A DNA stretch of 64,000 bases from Antedon mediterranea (Eukaryota; Animalia; Echinodermata): contig NC_092678.1 in NCBI RefSeq assembly GCF_964355755.1, positions 14,100,371 to 14,164,370 of the forward strand, written 5' to 3'. Position numbers and translations under genes: made by a program. Each line of letters begins with the position of its first letter. Within the stretch, counting starts at the first letter, position 1. Positions 13,225 to 43,496 of the stretch are shown one piece after another. The notes beneath the pieces were generated by a model. That model did not search any database. It worked only from the letters and a program-made list of their open reading frames with translations, and was not told where the DNA came from.

Positions 13225-13797
13225 TCAAGAAGGTACTTTTGAGCGATTAGGTGGTTCGGGCAAGTTGACAAGTTTATTACAAATCTCTCGGTCGACGAGC
13301 TCACGTGCCAATGTATTGTCATCATCATTCAATTCGTCCTCATCGCTGCTATCATCATCATCATCATCGTCCAACAATCCTCGAATTGAATCCATTGCAG
13401 TATTGTGTCTAAGTCGTCTGTTGTTAACGCTTCCTAAAAGTGAACATATCCTATTGGGATTCATGCTCTTCTCTGATTTTCTGAGAGAGTAATCTTCCTC
13501 CTTGAGTCGATCGTATTGCAGCCTGTCAAACGTTCGTAATTTAGACGAAAGTGCATCTTTCTCCAACTTTAACATGGCGTTCTGAGACGTGGTCAACATT
13601 CGTTCATAATTCGACTTTCGTCTGATCAACGACGACAGCATTTTCGCATCAATTCCATTCTTCAAACCTGACTGTATACTTTCTTGCATTTGCATCGTCT
13701 TTTCGTCGAATGTGTGTTGCATGGCGGCAATGTTGCGCATAGATTCTACTCGTTTTTGTTCAATGGCTTCGCCTCTTCTTTTTCTTTTACCAAACAT
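13225..13797 (-). CDS. Snf7/ESCRT-III-like protein
   Basis: ~190 aa, basic N-half and acidic C-half, helical. LIRRKSNYERMLTTSQNAMLKLE resembles the Snf7 alpha2 motif. DEDEL...LARELV..LPEPP tail resembles the CHMP4/6 MIM2-like region. Confidence 0.65.
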   Translation of the reverse strand: MFGKRKRRGEAIEQKRVESMRNIAAMQHTFDEKTMQMQESIQSGLKNGIDAKMLSSLIRRKSNYERMLTTSQNAMLKLEKDALSSKLRTFDRLQYDRLKEEDYSLRKSEKSMNPNRICSLLGSVNNRRLRHNTAMDSIRGLLDDDDDDDSSDEDELNDDDNTLARELVDREICNKLVNLPEPPNRSKVPS

Positions 13798-13834
13798 GTT
13801 TGCGTGCTGATGCAATAAGGCAGTATAGCGCACA

Positions 13835-14236
13835 ATGAAACCATTTGCGCCGTTAATAGTGACTTTTACGATATTCGTCGTTGTTCTGTACAGTCTTACG
13901 TCGAAATACAACTGGCAAGGGAATACGTACGATAAGGAGAAGATAAGCTACAAGCAACTGTTGACGTCCAATATAATTCTGTTTGCCATAACGTTCTACA
14001 GTGGACTGAAATATCTTCTCATCAGATACTATTCGAGTTACTACGGCGGTGGCCGGGGTAGACTCATGTTCATGACAGAGACTTTACTTCGCATGACGGT
14101 AATGATGGGAATCGATTACAGAGTGCAGAACATTATCGTGTCGCAAATGTCATCGCGTCTGGCCATCATGTTTGGGGATATCATGTCGATCGTCATCGAA
14201 GCCAGTATGGAACAGTACACGCCTCACAGTGGGTGA
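13835..14236 (+). CDS. Small membrane protein
   Basis: ATG start, two or more hydrophobic segments, fits between neighbouring genes. Confidence 0.55.
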   Translation: MKPFAPLIVTFTIFVVVLYSLTSKYNWQGNTYDKEKISYKQLLTSNIILFAITFYSGLKYLLIRYYSSYYGGGRGRLMFMTETLLRMTVMMGIDYRVQNIIVSQMSSRLAIMFGDIMSIVIEASMEQYTPHSG

Positions 14237-14965
14237 ATTCATCGATAGCGTACCGTATCGTATCCAGGCCACGCATGACTCTACAGCACGTTCATAGGTG
14301 AAATTGAGTACACGATCAGCGCGTTTAACAAGAAAACGTCTGTCATCGTAAAGAAAACAAAGTCCGTCTGCGCTTGGCATTCCGTCAAGATCGCATCGAT
14401 GGATCGTTAACGGACCACCTCCCGATACGGGCATGGACGAGAACATGTGCCAAATTAATAAACATTTGTACATGCTTGTAACTTGATCATCTTTATTTAT
14501 TTCTGTTGTCGGTGTCATTTTCTTCAATCCATTCACGTAGTCACAGACTCTTTCCACGTCCACGTCACACGCCTCCATCCATTTCCTGAACGCCGTTTCG
14601 TGTCCAATGATTGCCGGATCAACCACCGTACTTGGATCGACAACGAGACGAAAAAATGTACACGTTGCCGCTCTGCGTTCATCGTGTCTGTCTGGATTCG
14701 CCAACATACACTCGAGCAGGTTCCTACTCCAAACATCAAGATTACAATGCTCGAAACACGCGTACTGCTTGGACGCCATGCACCGACGGCGTTCGGCAAA
14801 ACACAACAGTTTTGCAATCGATGCCGTACACTCGAGACTAATTGTTTTTGGCAACAACGTATAGCTAACGCACGATTCTACATATCGAATTTCTTTCTCG
14901 ATTTCAATTCTAAGTTTTTCAACGGCATTCTTGACTCGTTTATCGATGCGTTTGGCAAAACTCAT
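14150..14965 (-). CDS. Hypothetical viral protein (Cys/His-containing)
   Basis: Complex ~270-aa region starting MSFAKRID. The upstream poly-His extension is a microsatellite artefact. Confidence 0.65.
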   Translation of the reverse strand: MSFAKRIDKRVKNAVEKLRIEIEKEIRYVESCVSYTLLPKTISLECTASIAKLLCFAERRRCMASKQYACFEHCNLDVWSRNLLECMLANPDRHDERRAATCTFFRLVVDPSTVVDPAIIGHETAFRKWMEACDVDVERVCDYVNGLKKMTPTTEINKDDQVTSMYKCLLIWHMFSSMPVSGGGPLTIHRCDLDGMPSADGLCFLYDDRRFLVKRADRVLNFTYERAVESCVAWIRYGTLSMNSPTVRRVLFHTGFDDDRHDIPKHDGQTR

Positions 14966-14986
14966 CGTAATAATTTGATGTTGATA

Positions 14987-15034
<48 letters not shown>

Positions 15035-15623
15035 ATGATGATGCTGGAAGTGGAAATACAACGAGTGATGTCTCTTTTTTTTTTGCTGTTTGTTCTGTTG
15101 TTTCGCTGAATACGGTAGTGACAAGATGATGACACTCATCTGTAAGGTTTTCATCTTTAATTCTACACCAAAAACATTTGTAGCCGACAATGGGACAGCA
15201 TCCGATCGGCATTGCCGGTATGGTTCCCATTACAGTCACAAATCTCCAAATTGTTGATAATCTTTCGAGAATTTTGAAAGAGTGCACATTGGTCCAGGCA
15301 AAGAGAACATTGCGTTTCAATATACTGTCCATGTCGGCCATTGTACAACACTCGGACGTTATCGTGGTTGTGTCGAACAAGAGACGTTCGATGAGCGCAA
15401 TGCATCGTGCGTAATAGAGAACATCTTGTTCATCGCCTTTTTTGGTACATATACTCTCCAAATTTCCTTTGAATTCCTTTAACAATTCTTTCAAGTAAGC
15501 GTTGTCTTCTTCTTCTTCTTCCTCGTCGTCGTCGTCGTGATGATGATGATGATGATGATGAGACCATTCTATCCATCTACGTTCAACGCGTGACTCTAAA
15601 CTTTTCCATAAATCAAACGACAT
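14940..15623 (-). CDS. Hypothetical viral protein with C-terminal Cys/His cluster
   Basis: 227-aa ATG ORF with GCCP..YKCFWC..ECHH. Confidence 0.6.
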
Positions 15624-15733
15624 AATCTAAAATATGGAGGTAATCAGTTGTCTCTCCTCTTCCTTCTTCTCCTTCTTCTGCTCATGTCGACGAGTATTCG
15701 CTATTAGATTGGTCAAGAGAAGATTGATTAGGA

Positions 15734-18700
15734 TTAGAAAGTTATCGGAGCTGGTAACTGGATCGTCTGTTGGGTCAAACATGGTGCTGCAGTGATTACC
15801 TTTGGATTGTGTCTAAGATTGTTTTCGAGAATACGTCCGACCAATTGTACATACCAATCTTTCTCCGACCAATCTATACGCATATCCTTGCCAAAAATTA
15901 CGTATCGTGCATCACCTCTACGGCGATACTTGCACGAATTGTCTGACGCAAGAAAACAAATGGGAACGCTACTTTGACTCGGTTTCACCAATGTCACGCC
16001 CGGTATCTTTCCCATGAACGAAATCACTTTCATTACAGTTCTATCGCCTTCGGTTACATCGCCTTTGCGTACGACCATAGGCGCAAAATATGTCGAGCCA
16101 CATCTGTCGGTCAATTTTGCTGCTGCTTCTACTGTTGATACATCTTCATCATCGGTGGAATTGATGTAATGTCTTGCTTGATTAATCACTTCGTTGAAAG
16201 TAAACTCTCCGGTTCCGAATAACTGATGATAGGACGTATTACTTGGACTGTAATCGACAACAAATTGTATTTTGTATTCATCATCATCCTCATTGCCACC
16301 ATTATGCTCATTATCATCATCATGTTCATCACCGTAATAGTCATGATTGTACTCAGCTTCATCGTATATCTCTTCCTCCTCCACTTTATCCTCTTCATCT
16401 TCATCATGATGTAACGTATATAACGAATGCGACGTACGTTTTTTATTGAAAAGTTTCCGTTGTAAGTTTGCAACCTGTCGTTCTCGTTCGCTGTTTGCAG
16501 TTTCAACTTTACTAGTTAAAAATTTAACATCAGACTTCAAATGTGCAATCTGTCCATCTTTATATAGATTTTGGCGCTTTTCTTGCTCCAATGACGCTTC
16601 GATATCTTTCATTCTTTCATGTAACACATCAGATCCACCATCTCCTCCTCCTCCACCGCCTCCGTCGCTTTGATTCTTTATGAATTCAGACAGTTTCAGA
16701 TAGGATTCGGATACTTTTCGCTGCGAATGTTCCAATTCCTTTTCGAGACTTTCGATGCGCTTTTGTGCAGTCAAGCTGTGATTTTTTAAAATAATTACCT
16801 GAGCGGCAAGAGAGGATATTTCTGTATTCTTGTCGTCGGATAACCGATGTGTTTCAGCTAAACTTTTTTCCTTGGCAGTAAACTTCTCTTGAAGTTTAGC
16901 GTTTTGCGTACACAACGAGTCACGAGCTTTTCGCGCTTCTTCTAGATCACGTATTGTCGACTTCAATTCTGTTTTGTGATTGCTCGACGCGTTCGCTGCC
17001 GACGTCAACTGTCGCTGTATAGCAGTGCTGTGTTCTTTTGCGACACGTTTCATCTCTGCGTCGTGTTTCTGTCCTAGTTTAGTTACTTCAGATTTCAGTT
17101 GTTTTTCGAGTCGATCACGTTCCTCGTCACGTTCCCGCGTGTGCTGTTTCTCGGCCTGTGTCAACATGTCGAGCATCTTCTTTTCAGTATCTTTCTTCGT
17201 GCTCTGTTTAGCTTCCGACACGTACTCGGCGTGTGTCTCGATTGACTTTTTCAGTCGCTCTTCTAAACGTTTTCGAGTGAAATTGTCCTCTGCAGCTTTG
17301 CTCGTCAACTCTCGAACCTGTCTTTCCAACAGGACACGATGTTGAGCTGCTTTGTCACGCTCCATCTTCACTTCTTCAACACGTTTCTTCCATTCATCTG
17401 TTTTTTCGTCGCCATCTCGTTTCAGTTGCGCTACCTTCTGTTCGGTCTCGACAAGAGTTTGTTTCAAATCATCTAGATTCTTTTCGTGTTGAACCGCATC
17501 TAGATTCTTTTCGTGTTGAACCGAGTTTTGCCTCTTGTCCTGTTCTTCAATCTCCCTTCTCATTTCGTCCAGCTTGATGGTGAACGTCGTGTTTGCGTTC
17601 ATCAGTTTATTGTTGAGTTGTTCTCTTTGCAGATGCGCCGAATCGGTGGTCTGTTGCAAGTCACGACCGAGTTTCTGTACGTTTTTCTTCTCGTTTTGCA
17701 GCTCATTGTTCAATTTTCTCAGATCGGTCAAATACGCCTGCTCTCGAGATTTTAACATGTTCTCTGCATCATGTTTTAACGAAGCAGAGTTTATTTTTTT
17801 GGCATCAAGTTGCGACGCCAAATCGTCAACATGTCGGCTCATCAACTGTTCATTTTTTTGTACGCTCGACTGATACAATCTGCTCTTTTCTTCGTACGTT
17901 TGCAAATCAGTTTCCAACTGTTGAATTCGCTGCCTGTACGTTGTCTCCGAAAGCGTGTTGGCCGTGTCCAATCTTCTGTTCAACACGCGCAATTCACCAA
18001 CTTCGTTTGTGAGTGCTTCGATGCGACGACTCGTCTGCTCGTCAACGTGTTCTTTTGACGATATCAATTCGGATTGCTTGCGCTTCAAAATCAATTCATG
18101 TGCGCGTGCTTCGTCCGTCTTTTTGTTAAGCAAGGCTTTTAGAGTGTCTGACTCGTCGACATTTTGCATTTCGGTGTCGTGAAGTTGTTGCTTCATTTCG
18201 TCCACCAAACGTTTACTGTTTCGCAGTTCGCCTTCGGTCTTGTCCAGTTTCGTTTCCAACTCTTTAATTTTTGCGTCGCTCACTCGCGTCTTTTTTTCAT
18301 TTTCTCTCGTCGACTCTGCATTCCTGGTGGCCATGGTCTTCTTGAACTCTTCGTGTTCTACTCGTTGAGTCTCGAGCGTGTTCAAAGCCGTCCGTCGTTC
18401 TTCTTCGGCTTTTGCTTTTGTCCATTGCATGACTTCAATCTGCGATTGGGATTCGGCATTAGAATCGGGCTGAGATGATATCCAATCTTCAATATCGTAG
18501 AGTTTTACGTGCATTGTACTATTGTGAGCGTTCACATCGTCCGAGATTTCACGCAATCTTTGAACGGTGTCTTCGTCCAAGATGGGCAAATCGTCGTTTG
18601 TTGAAGGTAAGATGCTGTTGGCCGTGTTCACGTAAGGAGCGAGCAGTTGACCGATGCTAGGTAAATCATCATCACCGTCACCTTCTTTTTCTTCTTCTTC

Positions 18701-20827
18701 TTCTTCTTCTTCGTGTACAATTGCGGTGTTCACCGGCATGCTTGCTATGGCAATAGATTTGAGCACAGAAATTGTATCATCGGTGTGTGTACGCGTTTCG
18801 CTGTTCATCACCGCCGGCGTCGTACCCGATTCGAGCACAGAAAGTGTGTCTTGGGTGGTGTTTGCCGGCATGCTTGCTATGTCAATAGATTCGAGCACAG
18901 AAATTGCATCATCGGTGTGAGTAGTAAGCGCGTCAGCAGTTTCGGTTTTCATCACCGCCGGCGTCGTACCAGATTCGAGCACAGAAAGTGTGTCTTGGGT
19001 GGTATTTGCCGGCATACCTTCCATGATGACCAGAGGTTCGAGAACAGAAAGCGTATCTGATGCGTTTGTAGTACGCGCCTCGTCGTCAACAGTTTCGGTG
19101 TTCACCTGCTGCTGCACCACCGACATATTATCAGCAGATTCTGTGTTCATCACCGGCATACGAGATTCAGAATCGGTAGTAGTGATGTTGGCGGCACGTT
19201 CACGCGCTTTAGCCTCCAAACTTAGCAGATGTTGGTAACTGAGTTGCGTTATTTCGAACCGACTTTGTTCGACCATTGCCATGCCTTCGGTGGCCGTGTC
19301 GAGTGAAATCTTGCGCGTTGATTCAGGAGATCTAACCGGTATATTGCAAAGAGCGTTGAGTAGAATAGCACATACGTTCGCCTCGTAATGGCAACAGTCT
19401 CTCCATGGCATGTCATCTTGTGCAGTGGGCGTTCCGAACGGAGGTCGTTCACATTGAAACGGTTTAAGTTCGTCGATCGTTCCAGTAACGAGTGCATGAT
19501 CTCTTAGACGAATCTTGAGAAATTCGTGTTTTTTAATGTACGACACGAGCGCACCAAACAAATGGTCAAAGTCAATGTCCAAAGCATTTCTTTCGTATGG
19601 CGCAAAGTCCTCTTGTATCTTTTTTGCCAACTTCCTGATCCATTCGACGGTGGGACGTTCCGCCGAGTCAACGGTCAACCACGGAGCATGTGCCGCGTTC
19701 CGTTTACTCTCAGCTGCCGTGATTTCCGCGTCGATTCTTTCAAAGTTCCAACTGTTTGTGATCTCTTCACTCTGTCCCAACACGAGATTCCACATGTCGG
19801 CTCTGGCGAGCAGTGTAGCATCGCCGATGTGATGAACTATGCGATGTAGTACGAGGCAAGCGAAAATCATGTACAGATTCGGTCTTTTGTCGAACAGCGC
19901 GCACACGTATTTCATCAATCGAAACGTGGTTCCGATTTCCACGTTTTGAATGTGCGTACATGCTTTCAACAATCTCTCGAAATCATCTTTACTTAATCCG
20001 GTTTTGTTGAAGAGAGCATCACGATCGCTGGAATTGTTACCTTGCGTAGATGTGTAGTGTTTCAGAAAAAAATCTTTCATTGTCAGTCTATTGCCGGCCT
20101 GAAACTTTCCCAGCTGTAGAAACGATTTCTCTTTTCCTGCGCCGCCACCGCCTATTACAGGCGACTGTGAATGTATACCTGGAACGGCAGTCATTGTCTT
20201 GAGATGTTTTGCAAAGTGTATCTTTTGTTGTATTAGATTACCGTCTTTGATGACGATTGAGACCCGAACTTGTTTCGAATTTAGAAAGCTACCGCCGAGA
20301 AACAAACTGTCGCACAATTTACGCGTTCTCTCTTTCATGTCAGCATGTTTGTTGATTTCTGTGATGATTTCAATCATTTTGATTATTTCACACAGACTTT
20401 CGTACAAGCTTTTAAGATTCTTTGCGTCGACAACAACTATGTGACCAGAAACGAACGCGTTTGAAAACTGTTTTGAAAAGCCGTCCATTCGAAGTAGCTG
20501 CGCTTTTAGACCCAGCATGGATCCATCTGGAGGGTAGCCGGATCTGTAAGCAGTCGATACCATTCTCATGAGCGTCGTTGTTGTGAGCGTCGGGTCTGCG
20601 AGTTCGTCAAGAACTCGTCCAAGATACGGCGTCATTTTTTTTGACTGTTTGCCAACCTCTTTATTATCGTCCCGTCCTTTTCTCTTTGTCGGCCTCTGTC
20701 TAACAGCCGTCGTGTCCATCAAAGTTTCGGTCTGTGATGATGTATACATGATGATGATGATGATTGTCTTCGAATTTACCATTATGTCATTAATGACATG
20801 TTGCGCATAATATGCGCAACATGTCAC
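15734..20827 (-). CDS. Very large coiled-coil protein (tegument or structural candidate)
   Basis: 1697-aa ORF: globular N-terminus, Thr/Ser-rich repeats, ~700-aa coiled coil, acidic linker and globular C-terminus. No Walker motif seen. Confidence 0.8.
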   Translation of the reverse strand: MTCCAYYAQHVINDIMVNSKTIIIIIMYTSSQTETLMDTTAVRQRPTKRKGRDDNKEVGKQSKKMTPYLGRVLDELADPTLTTTTLMRMVSTAYRSGYPPDGSMLGLKAQLLRMDGFSKQFSNAFVSGHIVVVDAKNLKSLYESLCEIIKMIEIITEINKHADMKERTRKLCDSLFLGGSFLNSKQVRVSIVIKDGNLIQQKIHFAKHLKTMTAVPGIHSQSPVIGGGGAGKEKSFLQLGKFQAGNRLTMKDFFLKHYTSTQGNNSSDRDALFNKTGLSKDDFERLLKACTHIQNVEIGTTFRLMKYVCALFDKRPNLYMIFACLVLHRIVHHIGDATLLARADMWNLVLGQSEEITNSWNFERIDAEITAAESKRNAAHAPWLTVDSAERPTVEWIRKLAKKIQEDFAPYERNALDIDFDHLFGALVSYIKKHEFLKIRLRDHALVTGTIDELKPFQCERPPFGTPTAQDDMPWRDCCHYEANVCAILLNALCNIPVRSPESTRKISLDTATEGMAMVEQSRFEITQLSYQHLLSLEAKARERAANITTTDSESRMPVMNTESADNMSVVQQQVNTETVDDEARTTNASDTLSVLEPLVIMEGMPANTTQDTLSVLESGTTPAVMKTETADALTTHTDDAISVLESIDIASMPANTTQDTLSVLESGTTPAVMNSETRTHTDDTISVLKSIAIASMPVNTAIVHEEEEEEEEKEGDGDDDLPSIGQLLAPYVNTANSILPSTNDDLPILDEDTVQRLREISDDVNAHNSTMHVKLYDIEDWISSQPDSNAESQSQIEVMQWTKAKAEEERRTALNTLETQRVEHEEFKKTMATRNAESTRENEKKTRVSDAKIKELETKLDKTEGELRNSKRLVDEMKQQLHDTEMQNVDESDTLKALLNKKTDEARAHELILKRKQSELISSKEHVDEQTSRRIEALTNEVGELRVLNRRLDTANTLSETTYRQRIQQLETDLQTYEEKSRLYQSSVQKNEQLMSRHVDDLASQLDAKKINSASLKHDAENMLKSREQAYLTDLRKLNNELQNEKKNVQKLGRDLQQTTDSAHLQREQLNNKLMNANTTFTIKLDEMRREIEEQDKRQNSVQHEKNLDAVQHEKNLDDLKQTLVETEQKVAQLKRDGDEKTDEWKKRVEEVKMERDKAAQHRVLLERQVRELTSKAAEDNFTRKRLEERLKKSIETHAEYVSEAKQSTKKDTEKKMLDMLTQAEKQHTRERDEERDRLEKQLKSEVTKLGQKHDAEMKRVAKEHSTAIQRQLTSAANASSNHKTELKSTIRDLEEARKARDSLCTQNAKLQEKFTAKEKSLAETHRLSDDKNTEISSLAAQVIILKNHSLTAQKRIESLEKELEHSQRKVSESYLKLSEFIKNQSDGGGGGGGDGGSDVLHERMKDIEASLEQEKRQNLYKDGQIAHLKSDVKFLTSKVETANSERERQVANLQRKLFNKKRTSHSLYTLHHDEDEEDKVEEEEIYDEAEYNHDYYGDEHDDDNEHNGGNEDDDEYKIQFVVDYSPSNTSYHQLFGTGEFTFNEVINQARHYINSTDDEDVSTVEAAAKLTDRCGSTYFAPMVVRKGDVTEGDRTVMKVISFMGKIPGVTLVKPSQSSVPICFLASDNSCKYRRRGDARYVIFGKDMRIDWSEKDWYVQLVGRILENNLRHNPKVITAAPCLTQQTIQLPAPITF
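18722..19070. repeat. In-frame tandem repeats within the large ORF
   Basis: Repeated MPANTTQDTLSVLESGTTPAVM and THTDDxISVL units. Confidence 0.85.
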
Positions 20828-21083
20828 GACGTACGTATATTATACGTACGTCGTGTGAAGAAGAAGAAGAAGAAGAACGAGAAAATGTCATGGCGTCGAT
20901 CGGCCGATGAACTAATTCAACGTAATTTCTGGTACATGACCACATCAACTGTAAATTCATCATCATCATCAACACCACCAACAACAACAACAACAACAAC
21001 GACACAATCATCATCATCATCATCAAAATCGTTGTTGAAGAAAGAAAACGTAATCAAGAAGAAAAAACACAAACGAAAACGTA

Positions 21084-21980
21084 CTAAGATTCTCGATTTA
21101 ATTTTGCCAAATGATAACGACAAATCTTTTCATTCGCCATGCTCTGTAACAACCTCGAGCACGCTGTCAGTTGAGAGGTCGACACCTGAAATATCGGAAA
21201 CATCAACCGATCACCTGGCATGGGTTTCAGTTGAGGAAAGCGTGGTTTTAGAATGACGCTTTCCGCCGAACGAATACCATTCAACGTGCTCTTTAGTAAG
21301 TACACGACCGTTTCGTGACCGTTGCTGAGTAGAAAGTCTTTCTTGGAATATTGTAACGTCGAGTAGTACATAAACACAGACATAACGTCGAAAATAAAGT
21401 CTACCACGTCGTCCAGCATGTTTTCCTCTGGAAGCGCTGTATCCGGTAATCTGTTTGCTGATACGTATTTTAGAAAGGTGTATCTGATTACGGACACGAT
21501 GTTCTGTTTGCCCATGTTCTCCAAAATCATTTCACAGGCCTTGTGTTCAAAGAAATTTACGTTGTTGTACTTGCATCGTTTTTTTCGATCGTACAATCGT
21601 TCCAGAACCTGACGTACGGTTGTGCCGAAACGAAACATTTTATCGTGTTTATTTCGCGTCGTTGTCGTCTTTCTAACCTCTTGCATGTTGTCGTATAGCG
21701 GCGTATCGAGTCCAACGACAATCGGTTCATATTCGTCTGTATAGAATTCTTTACCAGTCAATGCGCATCTTCGAGTGTTGTGATCTAAATTTTCCATGAC
21801 GCAGTCTGCCGACAATGAACAGGTGTGCGTGCGTAGCGACGACATGCACACGAAATTCTCACCGTCTTGCATGGGTTGCACGAACGTACATCTATTCGGT
21901 ACACATTCGTGAAGTTCGTCCACGTGATATATGTCGAAACGATTTGCTTGTAGATACGCGTTCAGAGCAGCTGTTGTCAT
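21084..21980 (-). CDS. UL92/ORF31-like (poxvirus A1/VLTF2-related) late transcription factor candidate
   Basis: HECVPNRC...FVCMSSLRTHTCSLSADC...RRCALTG fits the H.C..C / y.C....H.C....C / VC..TG pattern of the UL92 family. It lies antisense in the terminase intron next to exon 2. Confidence 0.65.
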   Translation of the reverse strand: MTTAALNAYLQANRFDIYHVDELHECVPNRCTFVQPMQDGENFVCMSSLRTHTCSLSADCVMENLDHNTRRCALTGKEFYTDEYEPIVVGLDTPLYDNMQEVRKTTTTRNKHDKMFRFGTTVRQVLERLYDRKKRCKYNNVNFFEHKACEMILENMGKQNIVSVIRYTFLKYVSANRLPDTALPEENMLDDVVDFIFDVMSVFMYYSTLQYSKKDFLLSNGHETVVYLLKSTLNGIRSAESVILKPRFPQLKPMPGDRLMFPIFQVSTSQLTACSRLLQSMANEKICRYHLAKLNRES

Positions 21981-21998
21981 CTTTATTTTTGTTTTCAG

Positions 21999-22565
21999 GC
22001 TTCAAGAGGAACCGGTTGTGATATGGGATGGATGGACGAGTATCCGTGGATAAAGCAAACGGCTATGCTATCAACTCTGCCAATCTTTCAACCTAAGAAC
22101 GTGTCGGTTCTTTTAACATCGTCGATGACTTCGAGTGATCACTGGTCGCAAGAGTTTGTGAATATTAAACACGATGGACGTGCACTGGTTAAATACATTA
22201 CTCAGTCGTACCTGTGCGATGCGTGCTTCGAGAAAGGAACGCGAACAGTGTGCGCTCACAGGCGACATTTGGTACCGGAACACATTGATGGAAACGACGG
22301 TAATGTCGTTCAGCAGATGATGAACCTCATAGCCACCGGAAGCTATGAACTAGAGTGTATGGGCATTCCCGTCTGTTCACCGTCTTTACTCGCCGAGCGA
22401 CTTTTTTCCGGTAAATTGCTAACCAAACTGTTTTCAGACGAAAGAAGATCCACCACAAGATCTGGCTTCTCATCGGGTCTGTTGATTGCCGTCGATCCAA
22501 CTCCGTCGGACGTGTCCGGCATTGGATTGGTTGCCGGTGTGTTAACGACGTCGGACGTTAGGCAG
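21999..22565 (+). CDS. Terminase exon 2
   Basis: Acceptor TTTTGTTTTCAG| gives ASRGTGCDMGWMDEY (equivalent to GIRGQDFNLLFVDEA, Walker B), then LLTSS coupling motif, Cys/His Zn motif and nuclease LIAVDPT..SGIG. Phase-0 donor CAG|GTAAGT at 22566. Confidence 0.9.
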
Positions 22566-23236
22566 GTAAGTCGAACGGATGGTATTTTGCACGCGGCGCC
22601 TCTTCTCTCCATAATTCTTCGAAGCGCGTACGTAGCGTGCCCTGGGAGCCCGGCCCGAATCGTAGACAGACCACCACAACAACTGGTATTCTGTACTCGA
22701 TTTCGAATCGTTGCAACGGCCACGGCCAACGGTGATCCGCATCCGACGGAATGCCACATTGGTTGATCGTACGTGTTGGTCAACAGCTGTACGATGATAT
22801 TGCGAATGCTATCTATTATCCAATGTTTATCGGTTGGCGTTGATGCTCTGTACTCACGTTCTACATCTGGTAAAAATGTCAAATTGAACATTTCTATTGC
22901 CTGTAAGAGAAACGTGTTCAATTGCGATATCTCTCGTTCTCGACCCAATTCAAATTGCGTGGCGGCCATCATTGCCGTTCTTGTGTAAGCCAGAATCGAT
23001 TGTTTTTGTCGTTGTTCGACCATATCTTGTACGGTTGCATCATTCATTTCCACCAACAACACTGTCTCTCTACCACACGTTCTCACAATCTTTTCGACAA
23101 TAGGTAATGCGGATGCGTTAATCTCGTCCGTTATAGCCGCCTTGTCTATAGCGCTCTTCCATTCGAAAAACATTCTTTGTCGTTCTTGTAGAAATTCCAG
23201 ATTGCAATACACGGGATGAAATGCATTCGTCAACAT
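22343..23236 (-). CDS. Hypothetical protein in terminase intron 2, overlapping exon 2 antisense
   Basis: 297-aa ATG ORF filling intron 2. The last ~70 codons overlap exon 2. Confidence 0.6.
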   Translation of the reverse strand: MLTNAFHPVYCNLEFLQERQRMFFEWKSAIDKAAITDEINASALPIVEKIVRTCGRETVLLVEMNDATVQDMVEQRQKQSILAYTRTAMMAATQFELGREREISQLNTFLLQAIEMFNLTFLPDVEREYRASTPTDKHWIIDSIRNIIVQLLTNTYDQPMWHSVGCGSPLAVAVATIRNRVQNTSCCGGLSTIRAGLPGHATYALRRIMERRGAACKIPSVRLTCLTSDVVNTPATNPMPDTSDGVGSTAINRPDEKPDLVVDLLSSENSLVSNLPEKSRSASKDGEQTGMPIHSSS

Positions 23237-23273
23237 TACGCTACCAATTGATTCTCTTTTTCCTTTTCTTTTT

Positions 23274-23455: not shown

Positions 23456-23989
23456 ATACTTGCTTTGAAACACCACGTTGCACATATGGATCGTATGGAT
23501 TCTTTACTGGACATGCACGCCCAACTAATAATAGACACGGTGAACAGGACATTGGCTACGTACAATCAGTTGACATTCATGCCAGTTCGTGTGTACGTAG
23601 AACGTAATACATCGCACGCACACGCCGCTCGCATGGCCAAGCAAGTAACGGATCGTTTTGCCGGTACGTCAGTAGACATATCTTTCGAAAAGGAGAGACG
23701 TCGAACGGACGGGCGTAGGTGTGTCGGAATTTGGACAAGAGACAAAGGAAATCTGGTACATTTGTCACAAATGTTGCTGGAGAACGATCGAGTCGTGTTT
23801 GCACAAGACATCGATGACGGACAGATGAGCATTTTACAGGATCAACTGTGTAACTTCAGAAGACTCGTAAAATCAGACGGTAAAATCACGATAAGTGGAA
23901 AGACGGCTGGTGTTCGTGATGATCTTGCCATGACGTTTATTTTGTGGTTGGCGTGGACTTGCTTTCTTTCTAATAAAGTTTATCAATAA
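23456..23989 (+). CDS. Terminase exon 3 (RNase H-like nuclease C-terminus)
   Basis: Acceptor TTTTACTACGCAG| gives ILALKH (cf. FALEH), then VYVERN (cf. AVEGN) and ISGKTAGVRDDLAM (cf. FSGK..DDL). AATAAA follows. Confidence 0.9.
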   Translation: MLALKHHVAHMDRMDSLLDMHAQLIIDTVNRTLATYNQLTFMPVRVYVERNTSHAHAARMAKQVTDRFAGTSVDISFEKERRRTDGRRCVGIWTRDKGNLVHLSQMLLENDRVVFAQDIDDGQMSILQDQLCNFRRLVKSDGKITISGKTAGVRDDLAMTFILWLAWTCFLSNKVYQ

Positions 23990-29336: not shown

Positions 29337-29978
29337 ATGGGAAAGTCAAAGGATATGATTGCGGAATTGAAACAGGAACTTGAAGCTATGCAAGTTGATA
29401 AGTTGAGTATGTTACAAGAACAAGATCGACTGAGAGGAAGAGTAATCGCTGCCGAAAAGTACGCCAACTCGTTACCGCAAAACATGTACAAAGACTTGAC
29501 ACATGCCGCCATGGACGCGCATAGGGATGTGGTAAAGGAGGAGACACAACGATACGAGATAGACAGCCTAAAGGCAAGACTCGCTGAAATGACTGTGAAG
29601 TATGAACAGTTGCGAAGGAAACTGCCCGAAACTTTGGAATTATGTTCCAAATACAAGGGGGCGACCGAGATGATCAAACTTTTAAAAATTCAATGTGAAA
29701 TCAACAAACAAGACTTTATGAAGGAGCAAGCGGATCGTCAAATGTTGGCCAGAAGAGCAAACTTACCGTACAAACAAACCGTTACAGAAGTCATACGAAA
29801 GCTGAATCTATTGATCGGACAGGATTATGTTGATAGTGATCTTGAAACAGACTGTGCCGACGTCAATCAAATAGAAGCAAATGTTTGTCATGCAATTGAA
29901 CCGGTGCAGTTTCCTGAAGATCCATTACTAGACACGTGCGATCAACTGATGGCCGAATACGGAGCAACGGTGGTGTGA
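29337..29978 (+). CDS. Coiled-coil protein
   Basis: Heptad-rich ~210-aa ORF with AATAAA downstream. Confidence 0.65.
   Translation: MGKSKDMIAELKQELEAMQVDKLSMLQEQDRLRGRVIAAEKYANSLPQNMYKDLTHAAMDAHRDVVKEETQRYEIDSLKARLAEMTVKYEQLRRKLPETLELCSKYKGATEMIKLLKIQCEINKQDFMKEQADRQMLARRANLPYKQTVTEVIRKLNLLIGQDYVDSDLETDCADVNQIEANVCHAIEPVQFPEDPLLDTCDQLMAEYGATVV

Positions 29979-33905: not shown

Positions 33906-33906
<1 letters not shown>

Positions 33907-33953
<47 letters not shown>
33907..33953. repeat. (TAG)n microsatellite
   Basis: About 15 units, intergenic. Confidence 0.95.
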
Positions 33954-33955
<2 letters not shown>

Positions 33956-34060
33956 ACAAATAAAACCAAAAGCAAAGACGTGCGTTACATTGTGTTTTTT
34001 TTTTTATAATGACTCTTGGACGAACAAAATAAATTTAAAAAAAAGCTACAATAAATCGTT

Positions 34061-36651: not shown

Positions 36652-37310
36652 ATCATCGAATCGTTTGAAAACCTGTGTCCGTAATCGTTTGGCACCGGTG
36701 GATATCCAATGCTTATCTTGCCACTGTCCAAGTCTGTGCGCATGTAGATGGGTACTTGGTCGTCGTCAGCGTCGTAACCGGGTCCTTGCACCAGTATAAC
36801 ATTACCGCTATCTGTGTCGTTGAACAATGTGAACACGTACGCGTTTTTTGTTGAGTACAATGACATTTTAGAAATGCACGTGAACTGTTGATGATCATCT
36901 TCGGATCCTCGACATGGTTCGGAAGGCATCCACGTTCGATCGATGGAGCGCATCAGAAGCGATTGCCCTTCGTCCGACACGATTCGATATCCCGTGTCCG
37001 AGGTGACGACAACGTCGCCAAAGTTCAGTCTACATTTGTGATCATCCAACGAGCGATAGGCACGTTTCAGATGAACGTGAATCGTGCACACGAGAATTAT
37101 GAGCACGATTTGGATGCCGCAGAGGAGTAGGCAAAACTTGTCGTTACGTCTATCATCATGATGGATGTCACTCCTAACTTTGCTTCTATCGGACCTACGA
37201 GTAGTGATTCTGCCAGCCAACCGACCCTTCTTCTTTTCACTGGAGCCGATCGACTCGGTGTCGTCGCCGCTGTACAGATCACTGCGAGTAACGGATTGTC
37301 TTCCCTCCAT
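36603..37310 (-). CDS. Type II membrane (glyco)protein
   Basis: Basic N-terminal tail, TM (LLLCGIQIVLIILVCTI), Cys-containing ectodomain with NxS/T sites. Confidence 0.65.
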   Translation of the reverse strand: MEGRQSVTRSDLYSGDDTESIGSSEKKKGRLAGRITTRRSDRSKVRSDIHHDDRRNDKFCLLLCGIQIVLIILVCTIHVHLKRAYRSLDDHKCRLNFGDVVVTSDTGYRIVSDEGQSLLMRSIDRTWMPSEPCRGSEDDHQQFTCISKMSLYSTKNAYVFTLFNDTDSGNVILVQGPGYDADDDQVPIYMRTDLDSGKISIGYPPVPNDYGHRFSNDSMIYVDGRVVSQTTSKNL

Positions 37311-37474
37311 CCGTCTTCGTAGTATAAGATATTCGCGCTGGTTCTGTCACTAAAGTCTTTTACGAGCAAATCGTCTATCGATGACAATTTCTTAAAGCCA
37401 ACGCGTATGTCGTGCACGAGAATAGACAAACACGATAATAGAAGGATTGAAAAAAGGGCGACAGAAACGTACAT
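37097..37474 (-). CDS. Small membrane protein
   Basis: Hydrophobic N-terminus; overlaps the previous gene. Confidence 0.35.
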   Translation of the reverse strand: MYVSVALFSILLLSCLSILVHDIRVGFKKLSSIDDLLVKDFSDRTSANILYYEDGWREDNPLLAVICTAATTPSRSAPVKRRRVGWLAESLLVGPIEAKLGVTSIMMIDVTTSFAYSSAASKSCS

Positions 37475-37860
37475 GTCATCATCACCACCAGCAGCACCGT
37501 TGCCTACGTTAACGTTGTTTACATTGTCGTTAAAGAAACAACCATGATCGTAGAGACTGTTACCGCACCATTTAAGGTACTTTCAAAGACATGTCAATGT
37601 GTCTGTTATATAAAATGGTTTGTAGTGTGTGTGGTCATGATACTCGTCGCTTTATGGGTCGTAAACTTCATCAAACCTTTCATGTGACCAACGCAGTTTT
37701 TTTTTTTAGCATTCCATCCTAAACTCATGGAAAACGTATGTTCTCGTTATTCTTCGATGAAAGAACCGTCGTTGAAGCAACGAATACCGTGCAGTGACTC
37801 AATTGTGTGTGAAGAGTCATAAAAAGGTGTGTGAGTGCATTTCAGGTTTCATTCGGTAAC

Positions 37861-38796
37861 ATGAAAAGAAACGTTGACGATCAAGATGGTGCTTTTGCGC
37901 CAATAATTCAGAGAGAACGAAAAGAGCGAAAGATATGTTTTGCTGCTCAAAAGACAGACTCGACTTGTCACGCGGCGAGTCGCAGTGCAGGCACAAGATT
38001 TAGACAGAGAATGAACGCCGGTGGTAACGTGTCTTTGGTTCAGTCTACGTGCGATATAAAACAGATTGTCGACGAACTTAAAAGGACCAGAGGTGAGTCA
38101 GACATTCTCACAAAAAGCGTACACGAATATCAGAAAGAAGAAGAAGAAGAAGAAGAAGAAGAAGAAGAAGGACCAACATCAGAAATGTACGAGTTGAATT
38201 TACGACGAGTACTCAAGCAACTGAAAGTTCATGAACACTTTCTAGATCGTGTACGCAACGTACCGAACGAATCACTCGTTCCAGATCAGTGGACGATAGA
38301 CATGCTCAATTTCAACGGGTACGAACACGGATACAGATCGGACGTGCGTGCAAACGTTCGTCGATGCGCTTCAGCCGACTGTGTATCTCGATACGTAAAA
38401 AGTGACGACGGCAACAGTTATACGTTGGGAGAATGCATGAACGTGGACGCAATGAAAACTATTATCATGGGTTGTAATCTAACAGACGTAGGAGCGTCAA
38501 ACTACTACGGACGACCCTATTGTGTATTATGTACCATATCGAATGCTTACCTAACATGTTCAAATCCGTTGGGAGATCGTCGAATTACACTTTGTGACTA
38601 CATCACATCATTCTCTTTTCAAATCATCGACGTGAAAAAAGAGTACGAATTGAAATGTCAGATGACACTGGACGATTCCGATGTACAGTTCGAGTACAGT
38701 TACGTGAACATGGATGCTATCGTTGATGTACTGCAATGGGTGAAAGAAAAAAGTTCAGAATTGCATAGAATTGATTTTTCAAATTTACGTCGATGA
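37861..38796 (+). CDS. Cys-motif viral protein of unknown function
   Basis: RRCASADC...LGECM...PYCVLC; AATAAA follows the stop. Confidence 0.7.
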   Translation: MKRNVDDQDGAFAPIIQRERKERKICFAAQKTDSTCHAASRSAGTRFRQRMNAGGNVSLVQSTCDIKQIVDELKRTRGESDILTKSVHEYQKEEEEEEEEEEEGPTSEMYELNLRRVLKQLKVHEHFLDRVRNVPNESLVPDQWTIDMLNFNGYEHGYRSDVRANVRRCASADCVSRYVKSDDGNSYTLGECMNVDAMKTIIMGCNLTDVGASNYYGRPYCVLCTISNAYLTCSNPLGDRRITLCDYITSFSFQIIDVKKEYELKCQMTLDDSDVQFEYSYVNMDAIVDVLQWVKEKSSELHRIDFSNLRR

Positions 38797-38827
38797 AATA
38801 AAAATTTAAACAAACATATATGTGTTT

Positions 38828-38858
<31 letters not shown>

Positions 38859-39022
38859 TCATGATGACGACGACGACAAATTGCATTTCACGCATACTAT
38901 TTCGTCCATCATAATCAATCGAACCAATCAAGTATCATCTTGGTAACTTGACGCCACGTTACAATAATAATAATTATTATATACGTCAGTCGTAGGTGTA
39001 TTACGCGAGACATAAAATCGCC

Positions 39023-40522
39023 ATGGGGCTCAAGGGAAAATTCTCTGACGTCATTGACAGTAATGCTAAGATTAATCAATCGTTTGGTGAAAACTGTAAC
39101 GATATTGTGGCCGTGATGGTGGACGCTACGCAGACATTTCACAAGATCGTTAAACGTAATATAGGAGTTCGTGTTGAGAAATGTTTTCCAGACCTACAAT
39201 CCTGTATCGAAAACTCGAGCGTTATCGGAAACCTGGAAAGTAAGAATTGGCGCAATACAGACAACGGTGTGGTGAACGTGTATCAACATTTCACCGTTCA
39301 AGATGTGCTAACAGAATTTCTCAAAGACGCACTGGCATGCGCGGATGACGTTTTAAAAGTGCAACGACGGAAAAGTGATAATGTTGCGCTGAAGGCACTG
39401 CTGTTGTTTGTGGACGGCGCAGCTCCGTATGCAAAGTCAGTGGAATTGAAACGTAGACGAAGCGTTAAAAAAAAGGGAGTTCAAAACCAAGTGAACAAAT
39501 TAGGTAGTGTAGACGAGAATCTGTGCGCGATTGCCGCTGAAAAGGGCATGTCTGTTTGTCGACAAGAAGACGGCAGTTACATCGGCAGTATAGAATCGTT
39601 CATCAGTAGCAGAGAAAACAAATCGTGTGTCGTTCAAGCTCTTCGATCAATGTTCGAAAAGGATCGACAATACGACCGCGAATACGCCGTTTACACGGTC
39701 GTCGGAGCCGGTTTTGATGACAGCACGACACGAGACTGGTGTCGTCTGTCCACATGCCTTTCGTCAACGCTGGAAAAGTGGTGCTGTGATTTCGAGAGTT
39801 TTCTGCCCGATCGAAACGTATCATCGGAATCGGACATACTGTTTGGCACATTTCACGATATTCTACGCTTCAACGTACAGATTCCTTCGTCCAACATTCT
39901 AATGGAAACGTGTGACAGTGACTGTTTGTTTACGCTCACCGCCCTTCAATCAGACGCTCTACTGGTACGCAAACTGCCCAGGATCACCTCGTGTTACAGG
40001 CTAGGCAAATGGGCGAGAGACACGCTGTACTGTCCATACGCTAGTCTCAACACTCTGATTTCAGCCTCCTTTCTAGGATCCGATTTTCACACGCATGTCG
40101 TTGGCGTCGGTGTAAAGACGCAAGTTAACATATTCGAGTCAGGATACGCATTTCCATTCATCGAAGTATCGTCGAACGTTGTGAAACCGATATATTCATT
40201 CTGTCGAGAAGATGATACGACATTGACCAAGTGGCACAATTTGTTGGCACAATACAACAACATGTTCTGTTTTCGATACAAAGATTCTCTGATACCGTTC
40301 AGGTACGTTCAGGAGAACATTGCTTCTTATGCAGTAGACATTGTTCAGATGACGGCAAAGTCGTGGAAGGATCGAGTGGAAAAGAACGCTAAAGACCTGG
40401 AGAGTTTGGATCGACATTTGCGGAAAATGTTCTTTTTTATCGAATACATGACCATCACTGATTCCGGAATAGATGATCGTCTACGAAACAACGGTTCACT
40501 TCGAAAAAAATACGGGTTTTAA
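39023..40522 (+). CDS. XPG/FEN1-family nuclease (Rad2 / vhs-like)
   Basis: MGLKG start, VMVDA, FVDGAAPYAKSVELKRRR, ESD, TCDSD and LGSDF give the full set of FEN1/XPG acidic motifs. Confidence 0.85.
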   Translation: MGLKGKFSDVIDSNAKINQSFGENCNDIVAVMVDATQTFHKIVKRNIGVRVEKCFPDLQSCIENSSVIGNLESKNWRNTDNGVVNVYQHFTVQDVLTEFLKDALACADDVLKVQRRKSDNVALKALLLFVDGAAPYAKSVELKRRRSVKKKGVQNQVNKLGSVDENLCAIAAEKGMSVCRQEDGSYIGSIESFISSRENKSCVVQALRSMFEKDRQYDREYAVYTVVGAGFDDSTTRDWCRLSTCLSSTLEKWCCDFESFLPDRNVSSESDILFGTFHDILRFNVQIPSSNILMETCDSDCLFTLTALQSDALLVRKLPRITSCYRLGKWARDTLYCPYASLNTLISASFLGSDFHTHVVGVGVKTQVNIFESGYAFPFIEVSSNVVKPIYSFCREDDTTLTKWHNLLAQYNNMFCFRYKDSLIPFRYVQENIASYAVDIVQMTAKSWKDRVEKNAKDLESLDRHLRKMFFFIEYMTITDSGIDDRLRNNGSLRKKYGF

Positions 40523-40604
40523 GAAATTAGAAAAATAAAGACAAAAGCAAATACCATTTTTGTTTTTCTTTTCTTTTATTTCAATAACGTATAAATGTGT
40601 GTGC

Positions 40605-40636
<32 letters not shown>

Positions 40637-40650
40637 GTAAGCGTGTGAAA

Positions 40651-41985
40651 ATGGCAAATATCGTGATAGGTGATGATGGAGATTACGAAAACATTCGTCG
40701 ACATCATGAAATGTTTCAATTTCAAAACTCATGTTTTGCTAAAATAGACGACGTATCGCGAGACGTTTGTCCTGCAAAGAAACCGGGCGACTATGCCATA
40801 CAAACTGAACTGCATTCCGACTGTCAACCGTCGAGGGCGCTGTTTCCAATCGATGTTGATGCCGGCTGTAGTGTTTGGCGGTTCGATAAGGTGTCGGTGA
40901 CATTGAACGCAGGCACCTTTGATCCGTCAACGCTGTACGGATGGCGATTGATGGTGATCGACAAAAAGACCAGATTAATGACGCCGGCCTTTTGCCAAAA
41001 GGCTGCCATCACATGGGCGGGTACGGCCGACGTAATTCGTCAAAACGTTACGGCCGACAAGACTGTCGAGAAAGGAGTAAGAACGGCATGGAGGGTCGAG
41101 TACCACGGAACGCTGACGGACAAGAAGACTTGCGACGTGGCCGTACCGAGTATGATGAACAAAATCAAGAGTGATAACGTACGTCAAGTGTTTGGCACGT
41201 CTCTAGTAAAACATCTTGTGGAACGAGATTTTCGCGTTGTCATCGATGATTTCCAAAGAGTCGATCACGACACTCAGTCAATCATCATGCCAAAAAGACA
41301 TGAAAACTTTGAAGAATACGCAAAGTACATTCAAGATGACGGTTACGGTATCGACGAAATTAACACGGCACACTTTGAGAACGTTGTTCACGCAGCGCTC
41401 AAGTCAAACGGTCGCTTGTTGATGGCCATCTCGGACAGGAATCATTTTGACAAGGATAACTTCAAGAGTAGTAACAAGAACGAGTACATTGTTCCTTTTC
41501 CGGTCGTACAGTCGCTGGTGAGTGTCACAAAGACTTTACATTCACAGTCGAATTACGTTCTCATGAAAGATAAAAGTCTTGTGCTGGAGCTGGACATCAA
41601 CAACAAGCAAAACAATTGTTTCGGTTCGATAGAGTTTATCTACGAATACGTGTCGGATCCATTTCCTCTGCCCACTGACCGGCCTTTGAGCGTTGATCAG
41701 CTCATCAGAAGTAACGTGTTACAATTCGACAAGACGCTCACCGACGTATTTACCGGGGGACTGTGCGAAAGTAGCGATGATGATGACGACGACGACGAGC
41801 ATAGTGATGAAAAAACACCTGTATTACCTCGTCATCATCAACGTGCTGGTGGTGGCGGTGGTGTTGGGGATCATTCCGGTCGTGGTCTTAGATACAACGC
41901 AAACAATCACAAGCCGAGAACGTTTAACGTTGGTGACCGAGAGCGTTTACCGAAAGGTAGGAGATTCGTTGAGGATACGAGGTAA
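40651..41985 (+). CDS. Hypothetical viral protein
   Basis: ~445-aa ORF with TATAAA upstream (~40590). Confidence 0.75.
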   Translation: MANIVIGDDGDYENIRRHHEMFQFQNSCFAKIDDVSRDVCPAKKPGDYAIQTELHSDCQPSRALFPIDVDAGCSVWRFDKVSVTLNAGTFDPSTLYGWRLMVIDKKTRLMTPAFCQKAAITWAGTADVIRQNVTADKTVEKGVRTAWRVEYHGTLTDKKTCDVAVPSMMNKIKSDNVRQVFGTSLVKHLVERDFRVVIDDFQRVDHDTQSIIMPKRHENFEEYAKYIQDDGYGIDEINTAHFENVVHAALKSNGRLLMAISDRNHFDKDNFKSSNKNEYIVPFPVVQSLVSVTKTLHSQSNYVLMKDKSLVLELDINNKQNNCFGSIEFIYEYVSDPFPLPTDRPLSVDQLIRSNVLQFDKTLTDVFTGGLCESSDDDDDDDEHSDEKTPVLPRHHQRAGGGGGVGDHSGRGLRYNANNHKPRTFNVGDRERLPKGRRFVEDTR

Positions 41986-42211
41986 GCCACCGTCATCGAC
42001 TATGATTCATTGTACGCTTGGCTGTAAAGAACTGCGTACGTTGTTGGGCGTACGGTGCGTACGCGAACCTCCTCCAGTGTGCATAACATACGTTTCGTGT
42101 AGCAACGGATACGATGCAATGTACAACGTTACGTCCAGTCAATGGTCTCTAATCGAGTGTACTGCTGCTGCTAATGTTGGTGAGAAACATCGATTGTTTG
42201 TTGTAATTTGA
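41807..42211 (+). CDS. Small membrane-anchored Cys-rich protein
   Basis: N-terminal TM (LVIINVLVVAVVLGIIPVVVL), several Cys, NVT sequon. Confidence 0.55.
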   Translation: MKKHLYYLVIINVLVVAVVLGIIPVVVLDTTQTITSRERLTLVTESVYRKVGDSLRIRGKPPSSTMIHCTLGCKELRTLLGVRCVREPPPVCITYVSCSNGYDAMYNVTSSQWSLIECTAAANVGEKHRLFVVI

Positions 42212-42361
42212 TGTACTGACCACGCTATACATGTGCCGATCACGATAAGGATGACGATTGTGCACAGAACCTCGTCTCTTTCTGCTACTGATTTTGGAAG
42301 TCCTTCTGACACCCATATGTATTTTGATCGTAATGTAGATGTATCGATGATACTACTGCTG

Positions 42362-42415
<54 letters not shown>

Positions 42416-42552
42416 TTCAGTCCTCTAACACGCGCTAAACGTCCAACAATCTTCCATCCGTGTTTTTCGATCGCGTACATCAGTCTATCGGAAAAGCTGC
42501 TGAGACGAACAAACGGTCGATATTTGCGATGATGTGGCGTGTGTCTAGACAC
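42139..42552 (-). CDS. Small membrane protein
   Basis: ATG ORF with poly-Ser and a TM segment (VLCTIVILIVIGTCIAW). Confidence 0.5.
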
Positions 42553-42707
42553 TATGATTTGGTGCCTGCTGGTGTCTATAACATACGCTCTCCGCGTAAT
42601 GTAAACAGTTATTTTCGGGAAAGGTTACGATCACTGGATTAGCGCCGATCACGTACCACGTGTTATTAAGGTGGAAAATCTCTTGATTCAGCACACCTTG
42701 TTTTGAC

Positions 42708-43496
42708 ATGACAACCGTTCGACCTTCTATCACCGCCACCACCACCATCACCACCGCTGAAAAGAGACGAAACGTTTTGAAAATGTTCTCGTGGATCATG
42801 TCGACGATTTGCAACTGTGGACGATATCGATTGCTAGGAGACGAAAATGATAATGATGAAAACGAAGAAGCAGCGGTGAATAAGGTACAAGATCCGAGTA
42901 AAGTTTGTGAAAAGATAACAGAGTTCCACAGTCGTCTCGAAGAATACGTTCGATTGCTTGACGCCAAAAAGCAAGACACCAAAGACTGTATGCAAAAGAT
43001 TCAATCCGAAATGATATGTCTACGCAATCGTATGTACGACGAAGACATTAGTGCTGAAGATGAATTTGACAAGGAAACCGTAAAGGTTGAGATACGTACA
43101 TTAATGCGAAAAAAAATACAATACGAGCAAATGTTCAGTATGCTAAACTCGATGGACGGTAATCTGAACGATATGAAAATCAAAATAGACACGCACAGTC
43201 TGAGCAATTCTTTACAGTCGACACTGTTGAATCTACCTCCTCACGTCAGCGAAGAGAATTACAAGAAAACGTTGACATTGGCCACAATCTACAACGATAA
43301 AGTCAACGAGATGGCACAGAACGTAAAACTTCCTCTCGACACCGAAACTCTGTGCTCGGAATCAGAATCTTCTCGAGTCGTGGACGATAGAGTGGCGATT
43401 CTGCTTAGTCGAAACGGTGAAACGCAGCATCAACATCATCATCATCATCATCAGATTGAAGACGGTCAACGGCGGTCTTTGGCGTCATCATCGTGA
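42708..43496 (+). CDS. Second Snf7/ESCRT-III-like protein
   Basis: Helical hairpin with IRTLMRKKIQYEQMFSMLNSMDGNLNDMKIKID (Snf7 alpha2-like). N-terminal amphipathic, Cys-containing segment MFSWIMSTICNC. Confidence 0.6.
   Translation: MTTVRPSITATTTITTAEKRRNVLKMFSWIMSTICNCGRYRLLGDENDNDENEEAAVNKVQDPSKVCEKITEFHSRLEEYVRLLDAKKQDTKDCMQKIQSEMICLRNRMYDEDISAEDEFDKETVKVEIRTLMRKKIQYEQMFSMLNSMDGNLNDMKIKIDTHSLSNSLQSTLLNLPPHVSEENYKKTLTLATIYNDKVNEMAQNVKLPLDTETLCSESESSRVVDDRVAILLSRNGETQHQHHHHHHQIEDGQRRSLASSS

Follow-up and report, generated by a model that had tools for sequence, protein, structure and literature searches.

A 64,000-nucleotide stretch of the Antedon mediterranea assembly (NC_092678.1, positions 14,100,371 to 14,164,370; hereafter the window, whose own numbering is used throughout) is, as we read it, part of an undescribed herpes-like virus, probably one of an animal, and carries two highly divergent open reading frames (ORFs), ORF-A and ORF-B, that we relate to the Snf7 family of ESCRT-III proteins. 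We regard it as likely that ORF-A is of ESCRT-III ancestry and is itself a true ESCRT-III protein, and ORF-B is probably an ESCRT-III protein too. Both genes had been put forward as Snf7-like in a preliminary description of the letters, and both are present and intact where it placed them. For ORF-A the assignment draws on language-model features, on fold ranking and on a shuffle-controlled Snf7 profile; for ORF-B the support is weaker.

13225..13797, minus strand: ORF-A (P0001), 190 residues, likely Snf7/CHMP4-type ESCRT-III subunit (language-model features, fold ranking, Snf7 profile).
42708..43496, plus strand: ORF-B (P0002), 262 residues, member of an unnamed viral family, probably with an ESCRT-III fold (family alignment, model).

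PF03357 was searched for in 81 Asgard genomes, and the largest cluster that resulted, comprising 45 of the 78 candidate ORFs (34 loci), supplied the Snf7 profile. ORF-A ranked first against it among 156 ORFs of the window (the set used for profile ranking; 46 ORFs were used for the Pfam scan and 66 for motif counts), scoring 9.4 bits with the runner-up at 3.0. None of 1000 residue shuffles reached this score, nor did any of 402 segments of 190 residues taken from other ORFs, and it was attained by only 2/1000 shuffles of 7-residue blocks and 4/1000 of 14-residue blocks, while reversed ORF-A scored 0.6; the signal outscores shuffles that keep helices intact as well as the long coiled coils encoded in the window itself. 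Weak in absolute terms, the match sets profile positions 8-170 against residues 1-166 co-linearly and keeps in register the first residue, the hairpin turn, the proline between a3 and a4 and the acidic linker. By hhalign, ORF-A scored 23.3 against the same family, compared to 14.0 after reversal, and the block nulls never reached it (0/100).

Among clusters of the ESM Atlas, one of Snf7 ranked fifth for ORF-A (0.90). Foldseek searches of the PDB with ORF-A returned members of the ESCRT-III superfamily in 16 of the 22 top rows (best E 0.045), and Asgard ESCRT-IIIB was matched with a probability of 0.99 and a template-modelling (TM) score of 0.52. The single-sequence AlphaFold2 model of ORF-A (mean predicted local distance difference test score (pLDDT) 75, predicted TM score 0.43; pLDDT 81-87 for residues 11-140) has an overall open ESCRT-III helix pattern, with a fourth helix at residues 160-177, and the protein can be divided as follows.

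13372..13791, minus strand: predicted core helices of ORF-A, a1 3-47, a2/3 51-110 and a4 114-142, net charge +14 (single-sequence AlphaFold2 model).
13321..13371, minus strand: acidic linker of ORF-A, residues 143-159, net charge -13 (charge count).
13231..13272, minus strand: tail of ORF-A resembling the MIT-interacting motif 2 (MIM2), residues 176-189, after predicted helix 160-177 (pattern match to the viral MIM2 consensus of PMC11218997).

ORF-A resembles Snf7/CHMP4 and Asgard ESCRT-IIIB (PF03357) in size, helix pattern, basic core, acidic C-terminal part and MIM2-like tail. The CHMP-like size and charge asymmetry that had been ascribed to both proteins belong to ORF-A, whose N-terminal half carries +9 and C-terminal half -9 (medians for Asgard Snf7, +9/-17); ORF-B is longer through an N-terminal extension, and its halves carry -5 and -3. 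The LPEPP tail expected on one of the proteins is found in ORF-A as VNLPEPP (residues 177-183), a pattern present in the last 25 residues of 1/66 window ORFs. In the form LVNLPEPP it agrees with the viral MIM2 consensus everywhere except at the last position (PMC11218997), and its phi-x-LP-E-x-P pattern follows a helix, the VPS and final LP of the CHMP6 type being unmatched. ORF-A has no obvious membrane anchor.

ORF-B belongs to an unnamed family from which 17 of 20 sequences were aligned; P0005, P0007 and P0021, each in a cluster with an aligned member, were excluded. Its close relatives show 47-48% identity and the wider family 18-24%. No genomic context was found for these presumably viral relatives. 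ORF-B and its full-length relatives (232-327 residues) bear the N-terminal extension, the closest of them starting near Met26 of ORF-B, and nine columns are invariant (R76, L77, N152, L173, P177, T193, D197, L208 and P209). The model computed from the 17 sequences (mean pLDDT 67; 83-95 over most of the hairpin) includes an N-terminal helix and gives the following layout.

42771..42836, plus strand: amphipathic helix of ORF-B with Cys35/Cys37, then YRLL; candidate acylated anchor (analogy to UL51).
42894..43409, plus strand: predicted hairpin of ORF-B, 63-110 and 119-174; helix 182-204; conserved LPL; helix 222-234 (17-sequence model).

The amphipathic, Cys-containing N-terminal segment anticipated for one of the two proteins is therefore that of ORF-B (C35, C37; hydrophobic moment 0.48). 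A Cys lies within the 36 residues ahead of the hairpin in 16/17 family members, a count for which no null was computed and whose members are related. A Cys followed by YxxPhi occurs in the first 50 residues of 4/66 window ORFs, and YxxPhi directly after Cys is seen in 3/17 family members, unlike the UL51 pattern.

The three best ESM Atlas clusters for ORF-B are all Snf7 (0.90, 0.89 and 0.88), and the ten best Foldseek rows in the PDB all belong to the ESCRT-III superfamily (nine Vipp1 chains and one CHMP2A/3; E 0.008-0.09). In BFVD, where rank 1 was an uncharacterised 618-residue Yasminevirus protein, rank 3 was a Megaviridae Snf7 (E 0.012), an entry that Pfam-confirmed mirusvirus Snf7 proteins also match, at E 1e-3 to 2e-3 (PMC12768974 supplement). 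At the level of the family, members averaged 5.85 bits on the Asgard Snf7 profile, a level that 0, 0 and 1 of 150 block-shuffled nulls attained, and hhalign gave 21.7, compared to 16.5 for the reversed family, with 2/100 nulls reaching it. Co-linear alignments over profile positions 27-165 were obtained for two relatives, P0011 and P0013, and the forward score exceeds the reversed one in 13/17 members and, reciprocally, in 34/45 Asgard Snf7 sequences.

A number of results weigh against these assignments. Neither protein matched Pfam Snf7 or UL51 at E<=10; Snf7 was likewise absent for six ORF-B relatives, and neither family was among the 25/28 Pfam families listed for the 17 members. PDB sequence searches gave no relevant match for either protein and no UL51 row, and Foldseek gave no match at E<=0.001, its rows repeating few proteins. 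NCBIfam and PHROGs returned nothing beyond weak coiled-coil rows. UL51 itself (as distinct from BSRF1) was not among the fold-search matches listed, which does not exclude it. The ESM Atlas recognition values of both proteins were below 2300, and the top three clusters for ORF-A (0.91) are unnamed. The hhalign probabilities were just 5.7% for ORF-A and 2.7% for ORF-B. In rigid alignment by VIA-align, MICAL bMERB domains (Z up to 11.1) outranked ESCRT-III (Z 9.1-9.6) for ORF-A, and many generic hairpins tied with it at Z 8-9.7, so that fold alone leaves the identity of ORF-A undecided. No homologue of ORF-A was found among 177 candidates, viral and metagenome contigs and phage records, a deep HMMER search not having been made for it, and conservation of its MIM2 therefore cannot be shown. 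Finally, the two genes lie 29 kb apart on opposite strands.

The points that concern ORF-B in particular favour an explanation that we consider unlikely, namely that ORF-A alone is an ESCRT-III protein. ORF-B would then be either a generic hairpin or a conserved helical tegument protein that is anchored in the membrane and has a fold of another class. ORF-B by itself shows no signal on the Snf7 profile, with 2.6 bits forward against 3.1 after reversal, and the mean of the family is 4.0 bits even when reversed, near its forward mean. SNX-BAR and bMERB domains (Z 10-11) stand above ESCRT-III (Z 9-9.6) in its rigid alignment. The protein has no basic core, helices 1-3 carrying a net +2 and the hairpin being near neutral, and a MIM2-like pattern was found in 0/17 family tails, MIM1 not having been scanned for. 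It is set against this explanation that Snf7 takes the three leading Atlas places and the ESCRT-III superfamily all ten best Foldseek rows, and that relatives of ORF-B are co-linear with the profile and mostly score higher forward than reversed, in both directions of the comparison.

ORF-A and ORF-B are not detectably homologous to each other: with a profile of the ORF-B family, ORF-A fell outside the top 12 of the 156 ORFs. A recent duplication was considered and rejected (BLAST E 0.075, hhalign 0.9%). The L.RK..YE motif previously reported in both is only approximate, reading LIRRKSNYE in ORF-A (57-65) and LMRKKIQYE in ORF-B (132-140), and the literal pattern fits neither; the stretch shared around it amounts to 6/16 identities (E 0.075), and Y139 and E140 of ORF-B fall outside the conserved columns of its 17-sequence family.

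Among the closest known systems are the UL51 proteins of orthoherpesviruses (HSV-1 pUL51, HCMV pUL71 and EBV BSRF1), viral CHMP4B-like helical hairpins with an N-terminal palmitoylated Cys and YxxPhi, which C35/C37-YRLL of ORF-B recalls (precedents for the mechanism in PMC7289601, PMC11218997 and PMC11381400). In HSV-1, pUL51 carries a palmitate on Cys9, superimposes on CHMP4B and assembles into filaments (PMC7289601); HCMV pUL71 binds VPS4A via a MIM2-like motif made of a helix plus an extended part (PMC11218997), a layout that the tail of ORF-A resembles. The premise that characterised herpesviruses recruit host ESCRT-III is accordingly incomplete: the UL51/UL71 proteins are themselves ESCRT-III-like (PMC7289601, PMC11218997). 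There are differences as well. Neither ORF-A nor ORF-B has a Pfam or sequence match to the UL51 family, and BSRF1 appears among the fold matches of ORF-A only at background level (Z 8.2, rank 44). UL51 is one gene, whereas here there are two, with the candidate anchor on ORF-B and the MIM2-like tail on ORF-A, and ORF-A, unlike the UL51 family, can still be detected as Snf7-like by sequence and has the full predicted a1-a5 layout. Within the 64-kb window no UL7, the partner of UL51, was recognised.

Snf7 is listed as a core function of Mirusviricota, with four Pfam-Snf7 orthogroups in the supplement (representatives of 612-879 nt) and two ESCRT-III-like genes, alongside a Vps4-like ATPase, in genome MIRUS_G_0012 (PMC12768974). 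These are, as here, ESCRT-III genes in a Duplodnaviria virus, but the mirusvirus copies match Pfam Snf7 at E 1e-12 to 1e-17 and ORF-A and ORF-B not at all, and mirusvirus hosts are unicellular eukaryotes whereas the present genome has herpes-type markers and animal-type domains. ESCRT-III-like proteins are also mentioned for Borgs and nucleocytoviruses. Solved PF03357 members share some 8-19% identity with the proteins described here. The lipid-anchor candidate ahead of the hairpin of ORF-B recalls the myristoylated CHMP6/Vps20; in contrast to PF03357 members, ORF-B is neutral in its core and extended at the N terminus, and it lacks both Gly2 and a MIM.

Close to ORF-B in length are two uncharacterised frog-herpesvirus proteins, Ranid herpesvirus 2 ORF81 (Q14W25, 267 residues; E 0.031, TM 0.45) and Ranid herpesvirus 4 A0A8F3CIJ6 (257 residues; E 0.0085, TM 0.44), which gave its best whole-length TM scores in BFVD (probability 1.00). 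Because the E values are 0.0085-0.031 and identity is 10-13%, orthology is a lead only; the two may represent alloherpesvirus proteins of the ESCRT-III/UL51 type that have gone unrecognised. For Salmonid herpesvirus 1, a structure survey of 2026 reported neither UL51 nor any other homologue of a tegument protein, its conclusion being that assembly differs in alloherpesviruses (PMC13030845).

We lean slightly towards a role in envelopment in which ORF-B initiates and ORF-A polymerises and recruits host VPS4. The proposal builds on the ORFs themselves, the conservation of the ORF-B family, the motifs and charges and the weak but controlled Snf7 signal, together with predicted folds. The anatomy of the two suggests a division of labour: a likely acylated anchor is present on ORF-B, which lacks a VPS4 handle, and ORF-A combines its basic core with what is probably a VPS4 handle and shows no obvious anchor. 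At the membrane where capsids get enveloped, ORF-B would act as the membrane-anchored initiator, held on Golgi/endosomal or nuclear membrane by an acylated, Cys-bearing amphipathic helix, as UL51 or CHMP6 is. ORF-A would be the CHMP4-like polymerising subunit, laying its basic core onto acidic lipid, and its helix-plus-MIM2 tail would bring in host VPS4, whereupon the filament would be remodelled and the neck cut. In one version of this proposal the two proteins would contact each other and co-polymerise directly.

The two proteins could instead be ESCRT-III-derived decoys or regulators, with ORF-A capturing VPS4 or capping host filaments. It would then serve to block endosomal sorting, membrane repair that depends on ESCRT, or cell death, and not to build virions. 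The genome has other apparent host mimics (two death-effector domains (DEDs), a NEMO-like CC2-LZ and a Rel-homology domain, described below), ORF-A has no detected relatives, as is common for accessory genes, and the outcome of VPS4A recruitment by pUL71 is summarised as unclear (PMC11381400). We nevertheless judge this decidedly unlikely, since ORF-B is maintained across viruses at 18-48% identity, as expected for a core morphogenesis gene, and ORF-A sits among packaging genes, between pieces of the terminase, with its whole predicted a1-a5 layout retained. That both are unrelated helical bundles, such as bMERB-like Rab effectors or coiled-coil tegument proteins, with a chance likeness to Snf7, is very improbable: the best rigid-body match of ORF-A is indeed a bMERB domain (140 residues aligned, 5% identity) and no curated library gave a significant match, but no bMERB family appeared in the Pfam output, the Snf7 signal of ORF-A withstands the shuffle and coiled-coil controls and its MIM2-like tail lies at the usual position in ESCRT-III.

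The envelopment proposal can be extended to the virus having its own two-subunit ESCRT-III scission polymer (an acylated initiator plus a VPS4-recruiting filament subunit) and preserving a stage intermediate between the Snf7 of mirusviruses and the UL51/UL71 of orthoherpesviruses. The ORF-B family, including the distant frog-herpesvirus ORF81, would then be the missing UL51 counterpart outside Orthoherpesviridae, and viral ESCRT-III would be ancestral in enveloped Duplodnaviria and not convergent. We consider this extension doubtful as a whole.

As to the surrounding genome, gene density is high from ~7.3 kb of the window onward. The Pfam scan matched the N and C parts of the herpes terminase, UL92 and Herpes_ORF28 (E 2e-7), all below curated cut-offs, and gave strong matches to DED, laminin-G and immunoglobulin (Ig) domains. 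No major capsid protein was identified in the window, and no AAA ATPase or UL7 family was matched among the 46 ORFs scanned, the 64-kb window being only part of the genome. The terminase occupies three pieces across 12.6 kb and is likely spliced; several genes lie between the pieces, among them ORF-A, which is antisense to the terminase and located between pieces 1 and 2.

11377..12108, plus strand: terminase piece 1, herpes-type (DNA_pack_N E 0.012, below cut-off).
21954..22766, plus strand: terminase piece 2, without Pfam match, with a Walker-B-like motif right after an AG.
23486..23989, plus strand: terminase piece 3 (DNA_pack_C E 0.0016, below cut-off).

Other genes were seen in the window. 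Two adjacent frames on the plus strand, 7286-7615 and 7612-7968, encode tandem DEDs (Pfam E 1e-12 and 2e-13) in a vFLIP-like arrangement; the second is possibly spliced because it has no early ATG. A NEMO CC2-LZ-like ORF (29337-29978, plus strand, E 9e-7) and a Rel-homology-like ORF (61969-62553, plus strand, E 0.003), both below cut-off, are possible mimics of the NF-kB pathway. Large proteins that look secreted, carrying laminin-G repeats along with Ig domains, are encoded at 8268-11276 (minus strand) and 47241-49667 (plus strand) and are candidate attachment or envelope proteins. The UL92-like ORF (21084-21980, minus strand) reached E 4e-4 and 20.8 bits, the cut-off being 21; UL92 is a late-transcription factor of beta- and gammaherpesviruses, and it is unexpected beside an alloherpes-type protease domain. 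Positions 1-7200 hold few genes at 33% GC, and a 305-bp tandem pair occurs there at 2955-3565 and again at 4516-5126; the CpG ratio of this flank, which is either a viral terminal region or host flank, resembles that of the remainder.

DNA of 11300-21200 was found in 11 listed sequencing runs from five studies; no RNA run was among those listed, which says nothing on expression. A single contig of run X1, possibly the source sample, covers ORF-A gap-free. ORF-B is covered by contigs of X1 and X5 with few substitutions, none listed giving a stop, and its strain differences in X5 (7 non-synonymous and 3 synonymous codons, 0 stops) are too few to judge selection. Runs X1, X5 and X9 also hold, beside the near-identical virus, contigs of a second, more divergent relative (~80% alike), which is colinear from terminase piece 1 to 14465 (window 11574-14465) and could supply orthologues of ORF-A.

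Virus-encoded ESCRT-III-like proteins are already known from mirusvirus Snf7 and UL51/UL71. What appears new is an ESCRT-III-like pair in a lineage outside the orthoherpesviruses, one member of which, ORF-A, is still recognisable as Snf7 by sequence. In a literature searched mostly without subscription papers, we found no report of a herpesvirus other than the Orthoherpesviridae with genes like Snf7, and no previous account of these sequences or this genome. The pair may form a link from the ESCRT-III genes already known in mirusviruses to UL51 of human herpesviruses, which has the shape of an ESCRT-III protein, and it bears on two questions: how herpesviruses cut the neck in envelopment, and whether the likeness of UL51 to CHMP4 reflects descent or convergence. 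A Snf7-recognisable ORF-A and a conserved ORF-B family pointing at uncharacterised frog-herpesvirus genes would provide concrete proteins for both.

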